DNA of 64,000 bases from a virus: positions 14,561-78,560 of IMG/VR virus record IMGVR_UViG_3300020205_002848; one strand, 5' to 3'. Of the stretch, positions 11,926 through 33,400 are shown in pieces. A model generated the notes under the pieces. The model did no database searches. It saw nothing but the letters and a program-made list of their open reading frames with translations, and had not been told where the DNA came from. The position numbers and the translations under genes are program-made. Positions within the stretch are counted from its first letter, which is position 1, and every line of letters starts with the position of its first letter.

Positions 11926-12393
11926 ATGATAACTAAAATATCCATATTAGGTAAAGAAAATTCTAAAAAAACTAGGTTAACTAAAGATTTAGCATGTTAT
12001 TATAATACTAATTTTGTATTGGATTATAAATATCTTATTTTTGGGAGTTTTGAAAAAACTCCAGAATGTGAGGATTACCTTAAAATTTCCAATGATAGAC
12101 TATCATTGGAAAATTGGCTTTTAAAGAGTTCCAATAAGATACTATTTTCAGATACTGATGACTTTAGTTTATATTTAGATGTTTCAAAAAAATTCCCAAA
12201 AAATAAAAAAGTAAAAGAGGAAATTCTATCAAGAGTTTTAAATAAAAAGTTTGATTATTATTTTCTAATAAATCCTACCGATGAAATAATTTCAGAAGCT
12301 AATAAATTAAAACTAAATATCGAAATATTTAAGGGAGAGTATGATGAAATTAAAAATAAATGTATATCATTTATAAATAAGTCTATAAATTAA
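11926..12393 (+). CDS. NadR-type P-loop kinase-like protein with degenerate Walker A
   Basis: KISILGKENSKKTRLTKDLA...ILFSDTD. Confidence 0.6.
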   Translation: MITKISILGKENSKKTRLTKDLACYYNTNFVLDYKYLIFGSFEKTPECEDYLKISNDRLSLENWLLKSSNKILFSDTDDFSLYLDVSKKFPKNKKVKEEILSRVLNKKFDYYFLINPTDEIISEANKLKLNIEIFKGEYDEIKNKCISFINKSIN

Positions 12394-13486
12394 ATTTTTC
12401 TAAAAATTCTGATTCAATTAGATAACCTTTGGTAGAATTAATATATCTCTTAGTTATACATAAATTCTCTATAGATCCAATCGTTATTGGATCTATAGAG
12501 AATTTAAATCCATAATACACAGATACTTTATGATCAATAGTTGGGAAAAATCTATGAGTGTGACTTTTTGATAAGTATCCTTTTATAAATTCATCATCGT
12601 AATAATCAACGCCATTCCATTTTTCATATAAAAACTTCTTGTTAGAGTTGGTAATTCTTCTAACCAACTTTTTATACTTATACCAATCACTCGTTTCGGA
12701 ATCAGATATAATGGTTCCGTTAGATTCTTTAGTATATTTTATTTTTCGTTGTATATCACCAACTTTACTAACATTATCAACTCCATATCTTTCTAGACAA
12801 GTTTCTCTACACTTTTTAATAGTTTCTGATAATTTTGATTTAAAAATGGATTTCCAATAGTCAGTCTTTGATAAATATTCATTACCATATCTTTCTAAAA
12901 ATGTTATTTTTATCTTTTCAATAGTTTGTATAATTTTAGAATCAATTGTCTTCTTAAATTGGTCAGTCTTTGAGTATGAATCAACTCCATATTTTTCCAA
13001 CATAGTTTTTTTAGATTTGTCTTTAAACTCATCAGATGACATCCACTTTCTATTCATCTCTCTACTTTCATCAGTTTTGAAATAAGAGTCAACTCCATAT
13101 TTTTCCAACATAGTTTTTTTACCCTTTTCAGAACCCTTTTGAATACCTTTCCATTTAATACTCTCTGTCAATTTAAACTCATCAGTCATTGAATATGACT
13201 TAACGCCCCATTTTTCTAAACATGTTTTCTCCTTTACATGATTTTTACACATAAAGCAAGAATAATATCCTTTGTCACTTCTGTTTTTATTAACTAAATA
13301 TTTCGAATAGGGTATATGGTTTTCGGAACTACATATTTCACAAATAGCTGTTATTTTATTCTTTGTACCCACTGGTAAGTCATTAACATTGACGAAAATC
13401 TCATTAGATATTGTATATCCTAAATTTAAATAGTAAGATCTATTTCTCAAATTAACTTTAACCAAAACTTTATCCTCCTTAATCAT
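12383..13486 (-). CDS. free-standing HNH-type homing endonuclease with EKYGV repeats
   Basis: CEIC/CFMC Zn motif, about 5 (C/M)LE(K/R)YGVD-like repeats, C-terminal PTIDHKVS...NLCITKRYINSTKG. Confidence 0.7.
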   Translation of the reverse strand: MIKEDKVLVKVNLRNRSYYLNLGYTISNEIFVNVNDLPVGTKNKITAICEICSSENHIPYSKYLVNKNRSDKGYYSCFMCKNHVKEKTCLEKWGVKSYSMTDEFKLTESIKWKGIQKGSEKGKKTMLEKYGVDSYFKTDESREMNRKWMSSDEFKDKSKKTMLEKYGVDSYSKTDQFKKTIDSKIIQTIEKIKITFLERYGNEYLSKTDYWKSIFKSKLSETIKKCRETCLERYGVDNVSKVGDIQRKIKYTKESNGTIISDSETSDWYKYKKLVRRITNSNKKFLYEKWNGVDYYDDEFIKGYLSKSHTHRFFPTIDHKVSVYYGFKFSIDPITIGSIENLCITKRYINSTKGYLIESEFLEKFNL

Positions 13487-13563: not shown

Positions 13564-15029
13564 ATGACAAGAGAAGAAAAAATATTCAAGATCGAGTCTT
13601 TAAAAAAACAAGCGAGCGAGCTAAAGAAGGAAGCGGATTACTACAACGCACTTCAGCTCGCTCTTGTTTAGCCCCCGGTATTTATTATCGGGGGCAAAAG
13701 AGACTAAAATTAGTTCTAAATGGAAGTTACGGCGCATTCGCTACATCCTACTTTATATTATATAATAACCACGTAGCTGGTACAATTACTGCACAAGGCA
13801 GGGACCTTACACAAACAATGGACAGGGTCAATGAAGACTATTGGTATAACCAGTGGCACAACGACCATGAACTTCATTTTAAATTAGGTATTAAAGATGT
13901 AAGTGAAATATCTAAAAGTGAACCAGTTTCTATATATGCTGATACTGATTCATTATTCGTTTCTTTCAAACCAGCAATTGACCATTGTAATTGGAAAGAT
14001 TTAATATTCAATAAAGAATATTTAGATTCGATTGATGAGAAGTTTATCATATTAACAAATGATGAGACAAAAACAAATAATCCTAATTGTTTAGGAATCG
14101 CATCTAACTTAGATGATTTATCTGAATTAATAAAAAATGATTATAAAGTTTTATTATTCGATGGTAACTTTATTAAAGACAGAGGGTTGAATAAGATGAT
14201 AAAAAATGGAGTATTCACATCTAGTATTGGGTGGAATTGGCCAAGTGAGCAAGACTTTATACAGGGTGTTGATCATTTTAGATTTGGTGGATACTTTAAA
14301 AAATGTTTAGAAGATTACGCATCATCTTTTGGTGTTGAAAATAAAGAAGATTTTGAATTAGAAAGAATATCTGAATCGATTATCAATCTTGCTAAAAAGA
14401 AATATATTTGTCACATAACATATGAAGATGGCATCCCATTTGATAGACTGACTTATCTTTATCCAAAAGGTGTTGAGCTTGTTAGATCGTCTACTCCGGC
14501 ATTTGCTAGAGATAAGATTGTTGGTATTGTTAAGTATCTATTTACACACCCAGATACCTTTAATATAAAAGATTTATTAAAATTAGTTAAGGGTTTAAGG
14601 AAAGAGTTTGAGTTAGCTGATATTGATGATATCGCAATGCAGTCTTCTTGTTCTAATTATGATATTAAGGTTCTAAATGATAAATCATTACCTCTTCAAT
14701 TTGTATCAGGTGCTCACTTTGCGGTTAAATCAGCAGCTCACTATAACTATCTTTTATCAAAGAGTAAAGACCATCAACAAAAGTATGAGTTTATTAAATC
14801 AGGGACTAAGATTAAATACTTTGTATGTAAAGATAAATCGGTAACTGATATGTTTGCTTATATTAGAGGTTCTTATCCACATGAATTTGCACCACCTATT
14901 GATTATGATACACAGTTTTCCAAATCTATTTTATCACCGGTGAATTCTATTATAGAGCCATTGGGAATGCCAGAGATTACTAAAAGGTTATCAGTTGTAA
15001 TGGATATATTTAGCGGTTTTTCGAAATAG
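13564..15029 (+). CDS. family B DNA polymerase, C-terminal subunit (gp43B-like); interrupted by a 41-nt insert (join 13564-13665 and 13707-15029, about 474 aa)
   Basis: MTREE...YYNALQLAL then GTT TAG; other frame resumes CTA AAA = (L)KLVLNGSYGAF...TITAQGR; YADTDS, KKKY, KGVELVRSSTP. Confidence 0.9.
13606..13706 (+). other. candidate programmed translational bypass element (5' stem-loop, take-off CTT, TAG, gap hairpin, landing CTA)
   Basis: GAGCGAGCT(13614-22)/AGCTCGCTC(13655-63) plus AAACAA/TTGTTT stem; GCCCCCGGTA/TATCGGGGGC hairpin 13671-13695. Confidence 0.75.
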
Positions 15030-28563: not shown

Positions 28564-30036
28564 ATGAAATTTAGATATGACAAAGAAACCGAAGAGATAG
28601 TAGTATCAGAAGCTTCAAGAATTGAATATCACCAATTAGAAATTTGGTTGACTCGTCATGTCAAGGGATATAAGTATATGCCGGCATTTAAAATGGGAGT
28701 TTGGAATGGACAACAAACATATTTTAGAAACGGTAGATTCAATCTAGGACTTTGGAAAGAAGCTATGAGGGGTTGTAAAGAAATAGAAATGCCTTTTATA
28801 CTTGAAAACAAAAATGATTTTCCACTTAATAGAGATGTTACTTTAGAAGGGGTTAAAGAATTTTGTAAAGATTTTTTTAAAGAACATAAAGTTAGAACAA
28901 AAGATGGTCAATGGATACCATTTGCTCCATATGATCATCAAATAGAATCTGCTTATAAAATTCTTAAAAATAGATATTGCATGGCAGAGGTAGCAACATC
29001 AGGTGGTAAATCTCTAATAATATCTATTGTCATGTTTTACACATTGAAAAATATAGACGAAACTGCTAAATTTTTAATTATTGTACCATCAATAACTTTA
29101 GTAACACAATTTTATGATAATATAATAGAATATAATTATGGTATTAATAACTTATTGGAGATGAGAGAAAAAGAATCTGACCACATTTTAACCGGTACTC
29201 ACTTACCATGTGATGTTAGAGTTGAAGAGGTTATGTCAGAGAGACCTAGAAAATTCTCAGGTACACAAAATGCTAATGTTTATGTTGGTACTTATCAATC
29301 ATTAGAGAAATGGCCAAAAGAGTTTTTTCAACAATTTCACACAGTTGTAACAGATGAGGCACATGGGGCTAAAGCAAAAACAATTACTACTATTCTAGAG
29401 AATACTTTCAAACATGCTTACTCGAGATTTGGAGTTTCTGGTACATTTCCAGAAGATGATACTTGTGAAATATTAACAATACAATCAGTGTTGGGTCCAA
29501 AAATAACAGAGGTCTCTGCTAATGAATTAAAAGAAAAGGGAATTATAACACCTATGGAAATAAAAGCTGTTATAATGAATCACAATGACTTAGAATTTGA
29601 TGAGAGAATGACTATTATTAAAAGAAGTGGTAATGGTAAAGATGCTTTCGAATTGGAAAAACAATACATACATGCTTCTGATAGAAGATTGGACTTTATT
29701 AAAAAAATAGTTGATAAATGTGATTCAAATACTTTACTACTTTTTCACACAATTGAATATGGTCAAAGAATATTTAATAAACTAAAAGAGGATCTACCTG
29801 ATAAAGAATTTTACTATATTGATGGTGAGGTTTCTGGTAAAAAAAGAGAAGTAATTAAAAAGGAAATGGAAATAACCAAAGAGAAAGTCGAATATACGAT
29901 TTTGAATTTTGGTGATTATGAGATTGAGTTTAAATCAGACTTTAAAATATTACTAAGTGATGGATTATTTAAAAAAGCATGTGATATATCACCAGATGAT
30001 GATATTGATGATGATTTTATAAATAAATATAAATAA
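28564..30036 (+). CDS. uvsW: UvsW-like SF2 helicase, N-terminal part (motifs I-IV) ending in an intein-like tail
   Basis: PYDHQ, ATSGGKS, VPSITLVTQ, TDEAH, GVSGT, YIDGEV. Confidence 0.9.
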   Translation: MKFRYDKETEEIVVSEASRIEYHQLEIWLTRHVKGYKYMPAFKMGVWNGQQTYFRNGRFNLGLWKEAMRGCKEIEMPFILENKNDFPLNRDVTLEGVKEFCKDFFKEHKVRTKDGQWIPFAPYDHQIESAYKILKNRYCMAEVATSGGKSLIISIVMFYTLKNIDETAKFLIIVPSITLVTQFYDNIIEYNYGINNLLEMREKESDHILTGTHLPCDVRVEEVMSERPRKFSGTQNANVYVGTYQSLEKWPKEFFQQFHTVVTDEAHGAKAKTITTILENTFKHAYSRFGVSGTFPEDDTCEILTIQSVLGPKITEVSANELKEKGIITPMEIKAVIMNHNDLEFDERMTIIKRSGNGKDAFELEKQYIHASDRRLDFIKKIVDKCDSNTLLLFHTIEYGQRIFNKLKEDLPDKEFYYIDGEVSGKKREVIKKEMEITKEKVEYTILNFGDYEIEFKSDFKILLSDGLFKKACDISPDDDIDDDFINKYK

Positions 30037-30044
30037 ATATAAAT

Positions 30045-30387
30045 ATGGCTAAAATAATAGACAAAAGAAAAATAATCAGAGAAGAAGGGGCGACTAAAGT
30101 TTTAGTCGCCTCTTACTGAGGACGGTACATTATCCACAGGAGTATCGATAAATGCTATTTTTAATGTAATATTCGCTGATTCTTTTAAATCGGAGCAAAT
30201 TATTATACAATCAATTGGTAGAGCACTTCGTTTACACTCTGATAAAAAGAAAGCAAATATCTTTGATTTGGTTGATATTTTTAATTCCAATAATATGAAT
30301 AATATATTATTTAGACACTTTAAAGAAAGAGAAAAATTTTACACAAAAAGACAATATCCTTACAAAATAATCAAAGTTAATCTTTGA
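30045..30387 (+). CDS. uvsW: UvsW C-terminal part (motifs V-VI); interrupted by a 7-nt insert (join 30045-30116 and 30124-30387, about 111 aa); missed by ORF track
   Basis: MAKIIDKRKIIREEGATKVLVASY TGA G GAC then GTLSTGVSI...QSIGRALR...IFDLVD. Confidence 0.85.
30085..30123 (+). other. candidate 7-nt translational bypass element
   Basis: 13-bp hairpin AAGGGGCGACTAA/TTAGTCGCCTCTT ending at take-off TAC, then TGA, landing GAC. Confidence 0.7.
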
Positions 30388-30417
30388 ATGTAGGGTGTTG
30401 TTTAAAATATATAATTT

Positions 30418-33400
30418 ATGGGCGGCTTTAGAAATAAATTAAATTCACAACAAAAAATAAACATGGATGTTATAATCGATACCTTGAAAAAGGGAGGTTA
30501 TACAAACCCATATACGATAGCTGGAATTTGTTCCATTATTAGCAAAGAGAGTGTATTTAATCTAATTAGAGAAAACATGAACTATTCAACTGATAGAATA
30601 GGTCAAGTTTGGGGTAGATTGAGGGGTAGAAGTGACTTAGGTCACAATCCTGAAAAGTTAGCAAATACGGTATATGGCGGTAAATATGGAAATGCTGCAC
30701 AAGATGGGTATCGATATAGAGGCGGTGGATTCAACCAATTAACATTCAAGGGGAATTATGATTTTTACGGTAGTAAAAGTGGAACTCAATTGGGTAGTAA
30801 TCCTGATTTAATAGGTGATATATTAACTGCTTCTAAAGTAATTTTATATTATTATAAATCAAACTATTCAATTCTTAAAAATAGTGGGGCTCTAAAAGAA
30901 TATGGTGCATCGGGTGATGGGAATACTTTTACTGACCTTAAAGGGGCCATATTGGGAGCTTATCATGCAACAGCCGGTGTTGGTAAAAAAGTATCATATG
31001 TTAAGGGATTATTAACCAGTGATTCACTGGGTGGTATGACAAAAGCACAGGCAAATGGGCCTGATATATTAGCCTATGTTAAATCATTTTCGGGTTTAAC
31101 ACAACCACCACCATCGCTGGTACCATCTGATGGTGGATCAACATCAACAACAGCAGCCGAATCACCCGCTACTTCAGTGGTAACTCCACCAGAGCCTAAG
31201 TATGTTATTAATAATGTAAAATTAATTAAAAAAAGCGGACCAGGTGAGATAATGGGTGTAGTTGAAGTCCCTGCTTATTTAGGAGAGGCTTCATTTTCAG
31301 GTATTCAATTTGACGAACCAGGTGATTATGTTATACATGCTGTCGGTGATGATGATTCCATCGAACCACTTGAATTTAAAATAACGGTTAGTGGCGATCC
31401 ATCTCCAAAAAGTCAAGAGAAAGCAGCTGCTTATGAAAAATTAGTAGCTGATGGTAATAGACCAATTATTGCTCAAATAGACCAACCAAGTGTTTCATTA
31501 CCACCAATGAAATATGATGTAGCCCCGGCTGATGCGCAAACAAATACAGATATAATTACATCTATAGGTTTGAATCCATTTTTGTGGCTAGGTGGATATC
31601 AAATAAGAGAAGCTGATATAAAATCACTTAGCTTATATCATCAAGGAATTACACCATGTGCTCAAGTTGTGTTTAATGACGCTCAGGGTATAATGAAAAG
31701 AGAGGGATTTCCTTTGAATAATGCAACATTTGAAATTTTCCTAAACTCTAGTTCTCCATATTTGAAATCAATTCATATGAAATTTAGATTAGTAAATTTT
31801 CAAGAAAATTCTGATAAAAGTATGACAATTACAGGTATGATAGAGTTAAAAGACTTTTATAAGATAAATTATAACTCATATAGTGGAACCTCATTTGAAG
31901 TTTTAAGATCAATATCAAAAGAGTTACAACTTGGATTTAACTCAAATATAAATTCTACATCGGATTCTATGAAGTGGACTAATGTTGGTAAGACATTTAA
32001 CGAATTTATGAGTAGTATAATGCAATTTTCCTATATAGATGATAAATCATTTGTAATGGGTTATATAGATTTTTACTACTGTTTCAACTATGTAGACTTG
32101 GAAAAAGAATGGTTGAGAAATATAGGAAATGATGTTGGTATTAGTTCAGGGGGTATTGGTAGATTAGCAACGACTAAATCAGATGAACAGATAGCAAGGC
32201 TATATTTATCAAATGAGAAATCAACAAATGGTAGTGATTTATATTTCCAAAATTACACTGTTAAAAATGACTCAACTGAAAAATCAATTACAAAAGGTCA
32301 AAGAACTGTTGTGAAATATTATGATACATATTCAAAGTCTTTTTTAATTTTTGACATTGATGGATTAACAACACCTGGTGATGACAATATAATACTTAAA
32401 GGCAATCCAGCCGATTCAAAAGATATGGAAGAAAACTATAGAACAGTTGATGGTGGTAGATTCGATTTATCTAATGTTCATAAAGAATATCTATATGCAA
32501 AAACATTAAATGATAGAAATCTAAGTGATTTGAGTAAAATATCGGTAACACTGGAGATACCAGCTTTGAATTTTAATTTTTATAAATTTCAAAAGGTTGG
32601 TATACAATTTGTCAATGAGGCTCAAACTATTTCCGACCCAAGTCTTATACAAGAGAGGATATCCGGGGAATGGATGATAACAGAAATAAAATATATTTGG
32701 ATAAAAAATAAGATAAACCAAACTCTAACTTGTGTAAGAAAAGAACTTGGTAAAATAATAGAAGAGAAAAGACAAGATAGTGGTAATAAAGAACCTGAAA
32801 AGAAATCAGGGGGTACTGTTGCACACGATGGATACTTTGGGAATGAGGCTGTTCCTGCTGTGCCACCAAATAGTATATTTAAAATAGGTGAAACTTATAC
32901 TGTTCAAGATAAAGATGGAAGATTATTTACAGTGACAATTGAAAATTTAGAATCTAATGGAAATGATATACAAGGATATATACTGGAAAATTCAGAACAA
33001 CCAGAATTAAAACCAATAATAAATACTGGTACTTCAGGAACATCTGGTATAAATGGGACAAGTAGCACATCTGGTGTAAATGGAACATCTGGTGTAAATG
33101 TAACTCCAGTTACTTCAGCTTCACAGACTTCCGGTCCTATAAATTTTGTAATAGGTGATTCAATAGCTGCTGGTTTGGCTAAACTAGCCATATCATCAAC
33201 AAATAGAAGTGGGGCTTATAATGATAGAAATGGTAAAAGAGTGCCACCATCAAAAGATGAATGGGGTATATCACAAGTTGGGGCAAACCCTGGTGCTATC
33301 TTAGGATTTATAAATGAAATAGGTAGTAGTAAATTATCCGGAAAGAAAGTATTACTTTCATCAGGGTATACGAATGGACCAGCTCAGAAACAAAAGGTGA

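Follow-up and report, generated by a model that had tools for sequence, protein, structure and literature searches.

A UvsW-like helicase gene of a freshwater phage is split by the remnant of a homing-endonuclease cassette with a probably intein-related tail

The window analyzed here is a 64,000-nucleotide stretch of virus DNA (positions 14,561 to 78,560 of IMG/VR record IMGVR_UViG_3300020205_002848), and positions given without another label are counted from its first letter. It contains a gene for a UvsW-like superfamily 2 (SF2) helicase that is split into two parts. The interruption is the remnant of a Mob-like HNH homing-endonuclease cassette whose endonuclease gene was deleted, with an 8-nucleotide spacer left in a tandem repeat. 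The C-terminal tail added to the N-part of the helicase is probably a homologue of the endonuclease-proximal half of a split N-intein (IntN), or at least similar to it in fold. The arrangement as a whole is probably that of a helicase split by a nuclease cassette that has lost its nuclease, with the two pieces held by an intein-derived clasp that does not splice and a short coding gap that is bypassed to complete the C-part.

Structure of the Split Gene

The N-part open reading frame (ORF) matches the Pfam families DEAD and ResIII, with a weak match to UvsW_N. For the intact relative, the only solved homologue is T4 UvsW (PDB 2OCA, E 6e-44). The ORF ends in ...KEKVEYTILNFGDYEIEFKSDFKILLSDGLFKKACDISPDDDIDDDFINKYK and is closed by TAA at 30034-36, and its last 48 to 49 amino acids, downstream of motif IV, form the tail VEYTILNFGDYEIEFKSDFKILLSDGLFKKACDISPDDDIDDDFINKYK. 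Eight nucleotides past this stop, an ATG at 30045 opens MAKIIDKRKIIREEGATKVLVASY, which is closed by TGA at 30117. The head of this second ORF, MAKIIDKRKIIREEGAT, continues directly into the helicase strand KVLVASY. From 30124 the reading frame of the N-part ORF is resumed with motifs V and VI (GTLSTGVS...QSIGRALR). As the original prediction, made from the sequence alone, had stated, the gene is broken between motifs IV and V; in T4 UvsW this is the loop that precedes the IIIVASY strand. The duplication that had been described at the break is likewise present, as a tandem repeat. The parts of the split gene are as follows.

28564..30036, + strand: helicase N-part ORF, 490 amino acids; composed of a UvsW-like N domain, RecA1, the initial half of RecA2 as far as motif IV, and the cassette-borne C-terminal tail.
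29890..30033, + strand: C-terminal tail, EYTILNFGDYEIEF...DDDIDDDFINKYK; acidic, four short beta strands and a helix predicted, probably homologous to split N-intein positions of about 40-95, with TxxH deleted.
30018..30045, + strand: tandem repeat of the 10-base-pair unit TATAAATAAA, 2.8 copies, 100% match; covers the last tail codons, the TAA, and the 8-nucleotide spacer.
30045..30095, + strand: N-terminal head of the C-part; its first residues are basic, and its ATG does not vary over 44 distinct versions.
30083..30112, + strand: RNA hairpin of 13 base pairs, ending one nucleotide before the Tyr codon.
30096..30116, + strand: replacement copy of the helicase strand KVLVASY; cassette-borne, ending in the Tyr codon TAC, the presumed take-off codon.
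30117..30123, + strand: coding gap TGAGGAC, 7 nucleotides; stop directly after Tyr, last triplet GAC, absent from intact relatives.
30124..30387, + strand: remainder of the helicase (motifs V and VI) with its stop, 87 codons, lacking a start codon of its own in the window.

Two huge uncultured phages with about 79% nucleotide identity, LR745206 and LR756502, have one uninterrupted helicase ORF of 536 amino acids that reads ...MENTGDNVKVLIASYGTLSTGVS... across this region. Relative to both, the window contains an insert of 206 nucleotides (29890-30095) and an insert of 7 nucleotides (TGAGGAC, 30117-30123), which together make 213 nucleotides, or 71 codons.

The stretch 29600-30400 is matched by a 9-kb contig from another sample and study with four substitutions and no indels, and the same architecture occurs in about 45 distinct metagenomic loci. 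Independent contigs thus rule out an assembly error. DNA runs of about 16 separate lake and freshwater metagenome studies (2017-2024) contain the stretch, and the phage lineage is therefore widespread in lakes. In a contig of run X3, from another lake sample, 160 nucleotides replace the 39 nucleotides of the window at 30014-30052; these are probably a longer endonuclease remnant. A self-splicing intron was rejected, as Rfam at permissive E values gave nothing relevant in 29500-30500 and the 206-nucleotide insert is protein-coding and conserved as protein. A repeated mobile mini-element was rejected as well, with no second copy of the insert within the 78.5-kb record.

The Cassette in Related Loci

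A query with the tail alone recovered 78 clusters of N-part proteins of about 480-500 amino acids; EYTILNFG is invariant in their tails, which also have the acidic motif DDDIDDxF. About 45 distinct loci with both halves, labeled here with L and a number, came from scans of viral and metagenome contigs. The spacer between the stop of the N-part and the ATG of the C-part is 2-60 nucleotides (the window type), 92-355 nucleotides, or about 970-1480 nucleotides (about 20 loci). The two long spacers examined (L025 and L032) each contain an intact 325-amino-acid HNH endonuclease ORF that matches phrog_12434 (E 8e-18) and is 26-33% identical to MobD/MobE-like genes of T4-type phages. Decayed remnants of the endonuclease are present in L024, L038, and L058, and nearly no spacer is left in the window (8 nucleotides) and in L057. 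In L014 and in protein P0018 the halves are fused in frame and the module, that is tail and head, is retained. Locus L058 has an ordinary C-part ORF of 112 amino acids with its own ATG and no gap. Its decayed endonuclease region (L058:4267-5140) also holds ORFs of 216 and 78 amino acids that are unrelated to the HNH gene and may be a second insertion into the cassette.

The Mob-like HNH ORF between the halves is thus present in relatives and deleted in the window, and the in-frame tail of the first ORF and the head of the second, with its own start, are kept wherever the gene is split. The tandem repeat at 30018-30045 lies where relatives carry the endonuclease gene and is probably the scar of its deletion. 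The head opens with ATG in every one of the 44 distinct DNA versions, although the search did not demand a Met; the Met is absent solely in secondarily fused forms. Because this ATG is invariant and a stretch of about 1 kb separates the halves in many relatives, the helicase is most likely made as two chains.

Mobility of the Cassette

A quick IQ-TREE tree was constructed from the N-terminal 445 amino acids of the helicase (82 rows). Helicases with and without the module are interleaved in it, and at least 19 changes between the two states are needed, 11 of them forced by well-supported branches.

Closely related empty and occupied alleles differ little up to the insertion point. The empty site of L045 and the cassette-bearing L096 are 98-100% identical in 60-nucleotide bins and 87% identical in the last bin before the insert. 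For L027 and L125, the identity is 90-98% and falls to 70% next to the insertion point. In the empty/occupied pairs, the 21-nucleotide KVLVASY segment is 62-81% identical and the first 60 nucleotides downstream are 72-83% identical, after which identity recovers. The co-conversion tracts at the flanks are about 60 nucleotides long, with flanking bins down to 70-80% identity. In three of six pairs (L027, L074, and L029), the nearest empty allele has ASF at the position of ASY in the cassette allele, and the others use differing codons; around the insertion site the empty allele of L027 reads ...GCTTCTTTT|GGAACA... From the ASF/ASY difference and the drop in flank identity, it follows that the cassette carries the tail, the head, the replacement strand with its Tyr codon, and the gap. 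The module is part of a mobile homing-endonuclease cassette.

Relation of the Tail to Split Inteins

The helicase family also has genuine split inteins, which sit at motif II (DE|C) of L062, L063, L068, L077, L081, L110, and L146. Each set is composed of a 100-amino-acid IntN (CLHPD...ITGNHKV...DEIIDFNFNI), a free-standing endonuclease of about 285 amino acids, and a 35-amino-acid C-intein (IntC), MKIKKIKKIEHNDNVYNLRIEDNHNYFVDGLCVSN|C. The IntN matches the Pfam Hint family (1.2e-9) and the IntC, which ends in ...NHNYFVDGLCVSN|C, matches Intein_splicing (2e-5). Locus L062:3296-4540 is a fractured gene whose free-standing endonuclease is TnsA-like or PD-(D/E)xK-like (phrog_15427). The motif II split intein and the q450 cassette are both present in L081, L110, and L146.

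A profile of ten window-type tails was compared by hhalign with the profile of these genuine split N-inteins. Tail columns 3-46 align to positions 40-95 of the 100 in IntN, with E 2e-5, a probability of 76-78%, and a score of 30.0. The scores of 200 column shuffles are 10.9 +/- 2.3 with a maximum of 19.2, and the reversed template scores 8.1, so that the tail stands about 8 standard deviations above the shuffles.

The catalytic elements of an intein are missing from the module, as had been stated for block A, the block B Thr/His, and the terminal His-Asn. An 8-residue alignment gap falls exactly over ITGNHKV, the block B TxxH region, in the window-type tails. The tail starts ...KEK|VEYTILNFG, and the first 39 or so residues of IntN (CLHPD...), which include block A with its nucleophile, have no counterpart. 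Blocks F and G, the terminal His-Asn, and a +1 Cys/Ser/Thr are absent, and the head runs from ...EEGAT into KVLVASY.

A sister module is present at a third interruption site of the gene in L072, L079, L080, and L119. Its tail, YKIEIEMEDGSIREFNPDDDIVTINRGIIKAKELNENDEL, aligns to IntN 53-93 with no gap at E 2.7e-8; the score is 41.7, and the shuffles reach 16.8 at most. The head of the sister module, MKIKRVSKIKIHKE, is close to the start of the genuine IntC (MKIKRISKIKI versus MKIKKIKKIEH). The sister module also lacks every catalytic block, and TGNH is replaced by NPDD. The third site (L072:1046-2527; L079:3044-4171) lies in a variable loop before DVRVEEVMS, and its tail and head enclose a different, zinc-ribbon-rich HNH endonuclease (phrog_559).

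Structure models were made with AlphaFold2 for the naturally fused module of L014 (predicted local distance difference test, pLDDT, 75.5) and for L123 read through its single in-frame TAA (pLDDT 72.0). Both predict the tail as four short strands and a helix at pLDDT 79-90, and the L123 model has a strand at the head residues ARIID (pLDDT of about 63). In an exhaustive VIA-align scan of 48,161 PDB representatives (Z>=2), 10 of 13 chains matched by the L014 model are inteins, and 25 of 29 matched by the L123 model have the Hint fold, hedgehog and a BIL domain among them. The match to PI-PfuI (Z 4.4) covers model residues 2-66 and extends across the PI-PfuI endonuclease domain; that to Npu DnaE IntN (Z 4.2) covers chain residues 49-99. 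The predicted strand at head residues 2-6 falls, in the alignment to large inteins, on the first strand that follows the endonuclease domain. By its position, its charge, and this moderately confident strand, the head probably takes the place of the first C-intein strand.

The likeness to a Hint domain that had been proposed therefore holds for the tail of the N-part. It does not extend to the MxKIxxRK start of the head, for which the comparison with the C-intein profile gave a score of 7.4, equal to the shuffle mean and not above chance. The comparison with Hint profiles that had been suggested was likewise divided: hhalign relates the tail to split N-inteins, and the Pfam Hint models do not match.

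Coding Gap After the Tyr Codon

The gap that follows the Tyr codon varies across about 45 loci (L024-L158). It is 0, 4 (TGAC, TAAC), 5 (TAGAC), 6 (TAGTAA), 7 (seven variants), 8, 9, 10, 11, 17, or 21 nucleotides in length, and the lengths fall in all three phases. All gaps but one open with a stop, and TGA, TAA, and TAG are all used. The last triplet of the gap is always NAY or TAA, and TAA stands directly before the resume codon in the 6-, 9-, 11-, 17-, and 21-nucleotide gaps. Compared with the take-off codon TAC, the landing triplet is GAC in the window (two of three positions) and TAC, TAT, GAT, AAC, or TAA in relatives; the second position is always A. The 87 codons downstream are intact everywhere, and the median ratio of nonsynonymous to synonymous substitution rates (dN/dS) is 0.12 among gap-bearing loci.

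A hairpin of 12-13 base pairs is located just before the Tyr codon in 32 of 32 gap-bearing sequences, with 97.7% of cells paired. Three pairs show compensatory changes, and none of 500 shuffles is as good. The X3 strain adds a compensatory pair, G30092A/C30107T. The hairpin energy is -13.5 to -20.9 kcal/mol in gap-bearing loci versus -2.9 to -11.1 kcal/mol in gap-less loci.

Since the 87 codons resume past the gap and have no start of their own, the C-part can be completed only by passage of the gap. Independent initiation of the 87 codons was rejected: a TTG in some relatives is merely a by-product of the Val codon GTT, the window has no such TTG, and a stop comes directly ahead of the resume codon in five gap types. 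A simple +1 frameshift is not a general solution, since that stop is TAA in all five types, and the lengths in all three phases exclude it as well. For the window alone, a +1 frameshift adding Glu-Asp is possible. An altered genetic code or read-through is excluded by the frame changes and the mixed TAA/TAG/TGA stops.

Judged from its sequence, the gap fits a short ribosomal bypass of the T4 gene 60 type and is a candidate for one. By the most likely route, ribosomes would pass the 7-nucleotide gap when, at the UGA stop, the peptidyl-tRNA-Tyr detaches from UAC and then pairs again with GAC. The hop would give VLVASY-GTLSTGVSINAIFNVIFADSFK.

The only gap that does not open with a stop is that of L151 (2444-2464). 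This gap, a 21-nucleotide in-frame CCCCGAAAGGGGAATCAGTAA, forms a small hairpin of its own and has TAA just ahead of the resume codon. In the 17-nucleotide gap of L081, pairing of CUUACU with AGUAAG could move the take-off site close to the landing site.

Proposed Clasp and Two-Chain Enzyme

The net charge is about -8 for the core of the tail and about +2 for the first ten residues of the head, in keeping with the acidic N-part and basic C-part that had been described. The genuine split inteins of the family have a similar charge complementarity, with values of -5.6 and +3 to +5. The region retained in the module presumably matches the charged IntN and IntC segments that bind first. As the module matches this capture region and the catalytic lobe is gone, a non-covalent clasp is its most likely function.

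In the proposed mechanism, a Mob-like HNH cassette would insert into the RecA2 domain of the UvsW-like helicase gene and split it into two separately translated ORFs, with an acidic tail of about 48 amino acids on the N-part and a basic head of 17 amino acids on the C-part. The cassette would also bring the recoded KVLVASY strand and the short coding gap. Tail and head would bind as a half-Hint clasp and let the RecA2 halves co-fold non-covalently, and the module, with all splicing residues and the catalytic lobe gone, would stay in the mature enzyme. The two helicase pieces are most likely held together in this way, and we infer both the binding of tail to head and the activity of the two-chain enzyme.

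A two-chain, non-splicing enzyme, as in the original prediction, is supported: the ATG is found in 44 of 44 versions, many relatives have a stretch of about 1 kb between the halves, and the catalytic blocks are absent. The description of the module as domesticated did not hold, given the tree and the near-identical empty and occupied alleles; a mobile homing-endonuclease cassette carries it instead. The alternative once put forward, a ribosomal hop from AAA 30031 to AAA 30051, is unnecessary.

Alternative Explanations

Several results weigh against an intein-derived clasp in a functional split gene. Pfam gave no Hint-family match for the module at E<=1. Foldseek against the PDB gave nothing below an E of about 1, and inteins merely top the non-significant list. 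All VIA-align Z values are low (<=4.4) and come from models of moderate confidence (pLDDT 72-75); the head region has a pLDDT of about 50-65, and its pairing with the tail is not securely predicted. The head does not resemble IntC by sequence, and the alignment of the tail to IntN needs two gaps. These properties would suit generic tails of a homing-endonuclease cassette with no intein ancestry, whose Hint likeness came from a convergent small beta-sheet and a compositional coincidence. Such tails are an unlikely explanation, however: the hhalign score is 8 standard deviations above the column shuffles, the unbiased scan of 48,161 chains returned nearly all Hint folds and returned them on the same half (Npu DnaE 49-99), and a second site of the gene carries an intermediate module with a clear likeness to inteins (E 2.7e-8, head MKIKRISKIKI). 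The opposite possibility, that the module is an atypical but active split intein whose halves splice in trans, is highly improbable. The gene family holds genuine split inteins, and atypical, cysteine-less split inteins exist in the literature, but here the first 39 or so residues with the block A nucleophile are absent, TxxH is deleted, and blocks F/G, His-Asn, and the +1 Cys/Ser/Thr are missing. Natural fused forms moreover retain the module in frame as a permanent insert.

It is very unlikely that the helicase gene is a decaying pseudogene, damaged by the cassette and with neither piece functional. The two ORFs, the frame-breaking 7-nucleotide gap, and the loss of the endonuclease would be expected of such a gene. 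The 78.5-kb record has a single copy of the helicase, but it is a fragment estimated to be 32% complete, and a second, intact helicase elsewhere in the genome is possible. The one metatranscriptome with any sequence words of the stretch contains short downstream pieces only and is uninformative. Against decay stand the 87 downstream codons, intact at every gap-bearing locus with the low dN/dS given above, and the conservation of the tail over 78 clusters and of the head over 44 versions. The occurrence of the arrangement in lake metagenomes of about 16 studies and the maintained covariation of the hairpin argue against it too. Production of a single chain by the AAA hop over the stop is scarcely credible. 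Matching AAA codons do flank the stop and the tandem repeat, but AAA is expected by chance in Lys-rich tails. The hop is impossible in relatives with long spacers (spacers range from 2 nucleotides to 1.5 kb, and both long ones that were examined contain an endonuclease ORF), and the ATG is kept at exactly the head position in all relatives except the secondarily fused forms. The split helicase with a non-splicing, intein-derived clasp thus remains the favored explanation.

Comparison with Known Systems

The T4 MobA element (genes 39/mobA/60) adds C- and N-terminal tails to a split topoisomerase, as MobE does to Aeh1 NrdA. The T4 element replaces 55-75 nucleotides of its host gene, contains a bypass cassette, and shows progressive loss and re-fusion (Manning & Atkins, bioRxiv 10.1101/2022.08.31.505936). 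The gene 60 cassette was called unique in that work, and the tails were proposed as a possible general strategy with no fold assigned. In the account of Bonocora 2011 given there, which is the source for the comparison that follows, both systems share with the present one an HNH Mob-type endonuclease that splits an essential gene of DNA metabolism. They likewise have an in-frame tail on the first ORF, a head on the second, a short replaced stretch of the host gene, and a coding gap that opens with a stop. A decay series (nuclease lost, gap lost, re-fusion) and near-identical genomes with and without the element are also shared. According to the same account, the host gene is a topoisomerase in T4 and a ribonucleotide reductase in Aeh1, and here it is a UvsW-like helicase of large freshwater phages. 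The head is 17 amino acids here versus 44-45 in T4 and Aeh1, the gap is 4-21 nucleotides versus 50, and the take-off codon is Tyr versus Gly. The tail is traced here to the Hint fold, and no such report is known for the tails of T4 and Aeh1.

Fractured genes, in which a free-standing endonuclease gene separates the halves of a naturally split intein (Dassa et al. 2009, PMC2677866), have the same order of N-extein and tail, endonuclease ORF, and head and C-extein. The acidic tail homologous to IntN 40-95 and the basic head are further likenesses, and genuine examples exist in the same helicase at motif II. Unlike fractured genes, the present module lacks blocks A, B, F, and G and has no splicing chemistry; about 65 of about 135 Hint residues are left, and the module stays in the protein. 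Split inteins associate first through disordered anionic IntN and cationic IntC regions, a step termed capture (Shah et al. 2013, as cited in PMC11766414). Real inteins go on to collapse of the catalytic lobe and splicing, whereas the capture lobe would be the end point here.

Full-text literature searches found no natural non-catalytic half-intein as a tail in a split gene and no bypass cassette in a helicase. The finding links Mob-type split genes and fractured genes with split inteins. A broader proposal, put forward tentatively and with more doubt than confidence, is that the tails of homing-endonuclease cassettes (here, and perhaps in T4 gp39/gp60 and Aeh1 NrdA) are split inteins cut to the binding lobe, and that the 24-codon head also provides the nascent-peptide and hairpin context for the bypass of 4-21 nucleotides.

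One other split gene in the window was considered. The DNA polymerase gene is split at about 13.5 kb, and its head (MTREEKIFKIESLKK...) is not of the helicase module type. A 367-amino-acid ORF with repeated KTMLEKYGVDSY-type motifs (12383-13486, - strand) adjoins the DNA polymerase piece at 13564-13830.

Significance

Homing endonucleases inserted in genes are thought to survive inside self-splicing introns or inteins. T4 MobA and Aeh1 MobE represent a third route, in which the gene is split and tails are added. The present system points to a concrete origin for such tails: a split intein that has lost all of its catalytic elements and kept its binding half. It would also be an example of a Hint fragment maintained by selection for binding alone. 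The gene family contains genuine split inteins as well as an intermediate form. The system opens the link between the loss of inteins and the splitting of genes to experiment. The gap series offers dozens of natural variants of a minimal bypass candidate, and the module of about 65 residues is a naturally evolved candidate heterodimerization pair and a potential tool for protein complementation. If the proposal is true, there is a natural class of non-splicing, intein-derived complementation modules, and fractured genes and Mob-type split genes would be stages of one evolutionary path.

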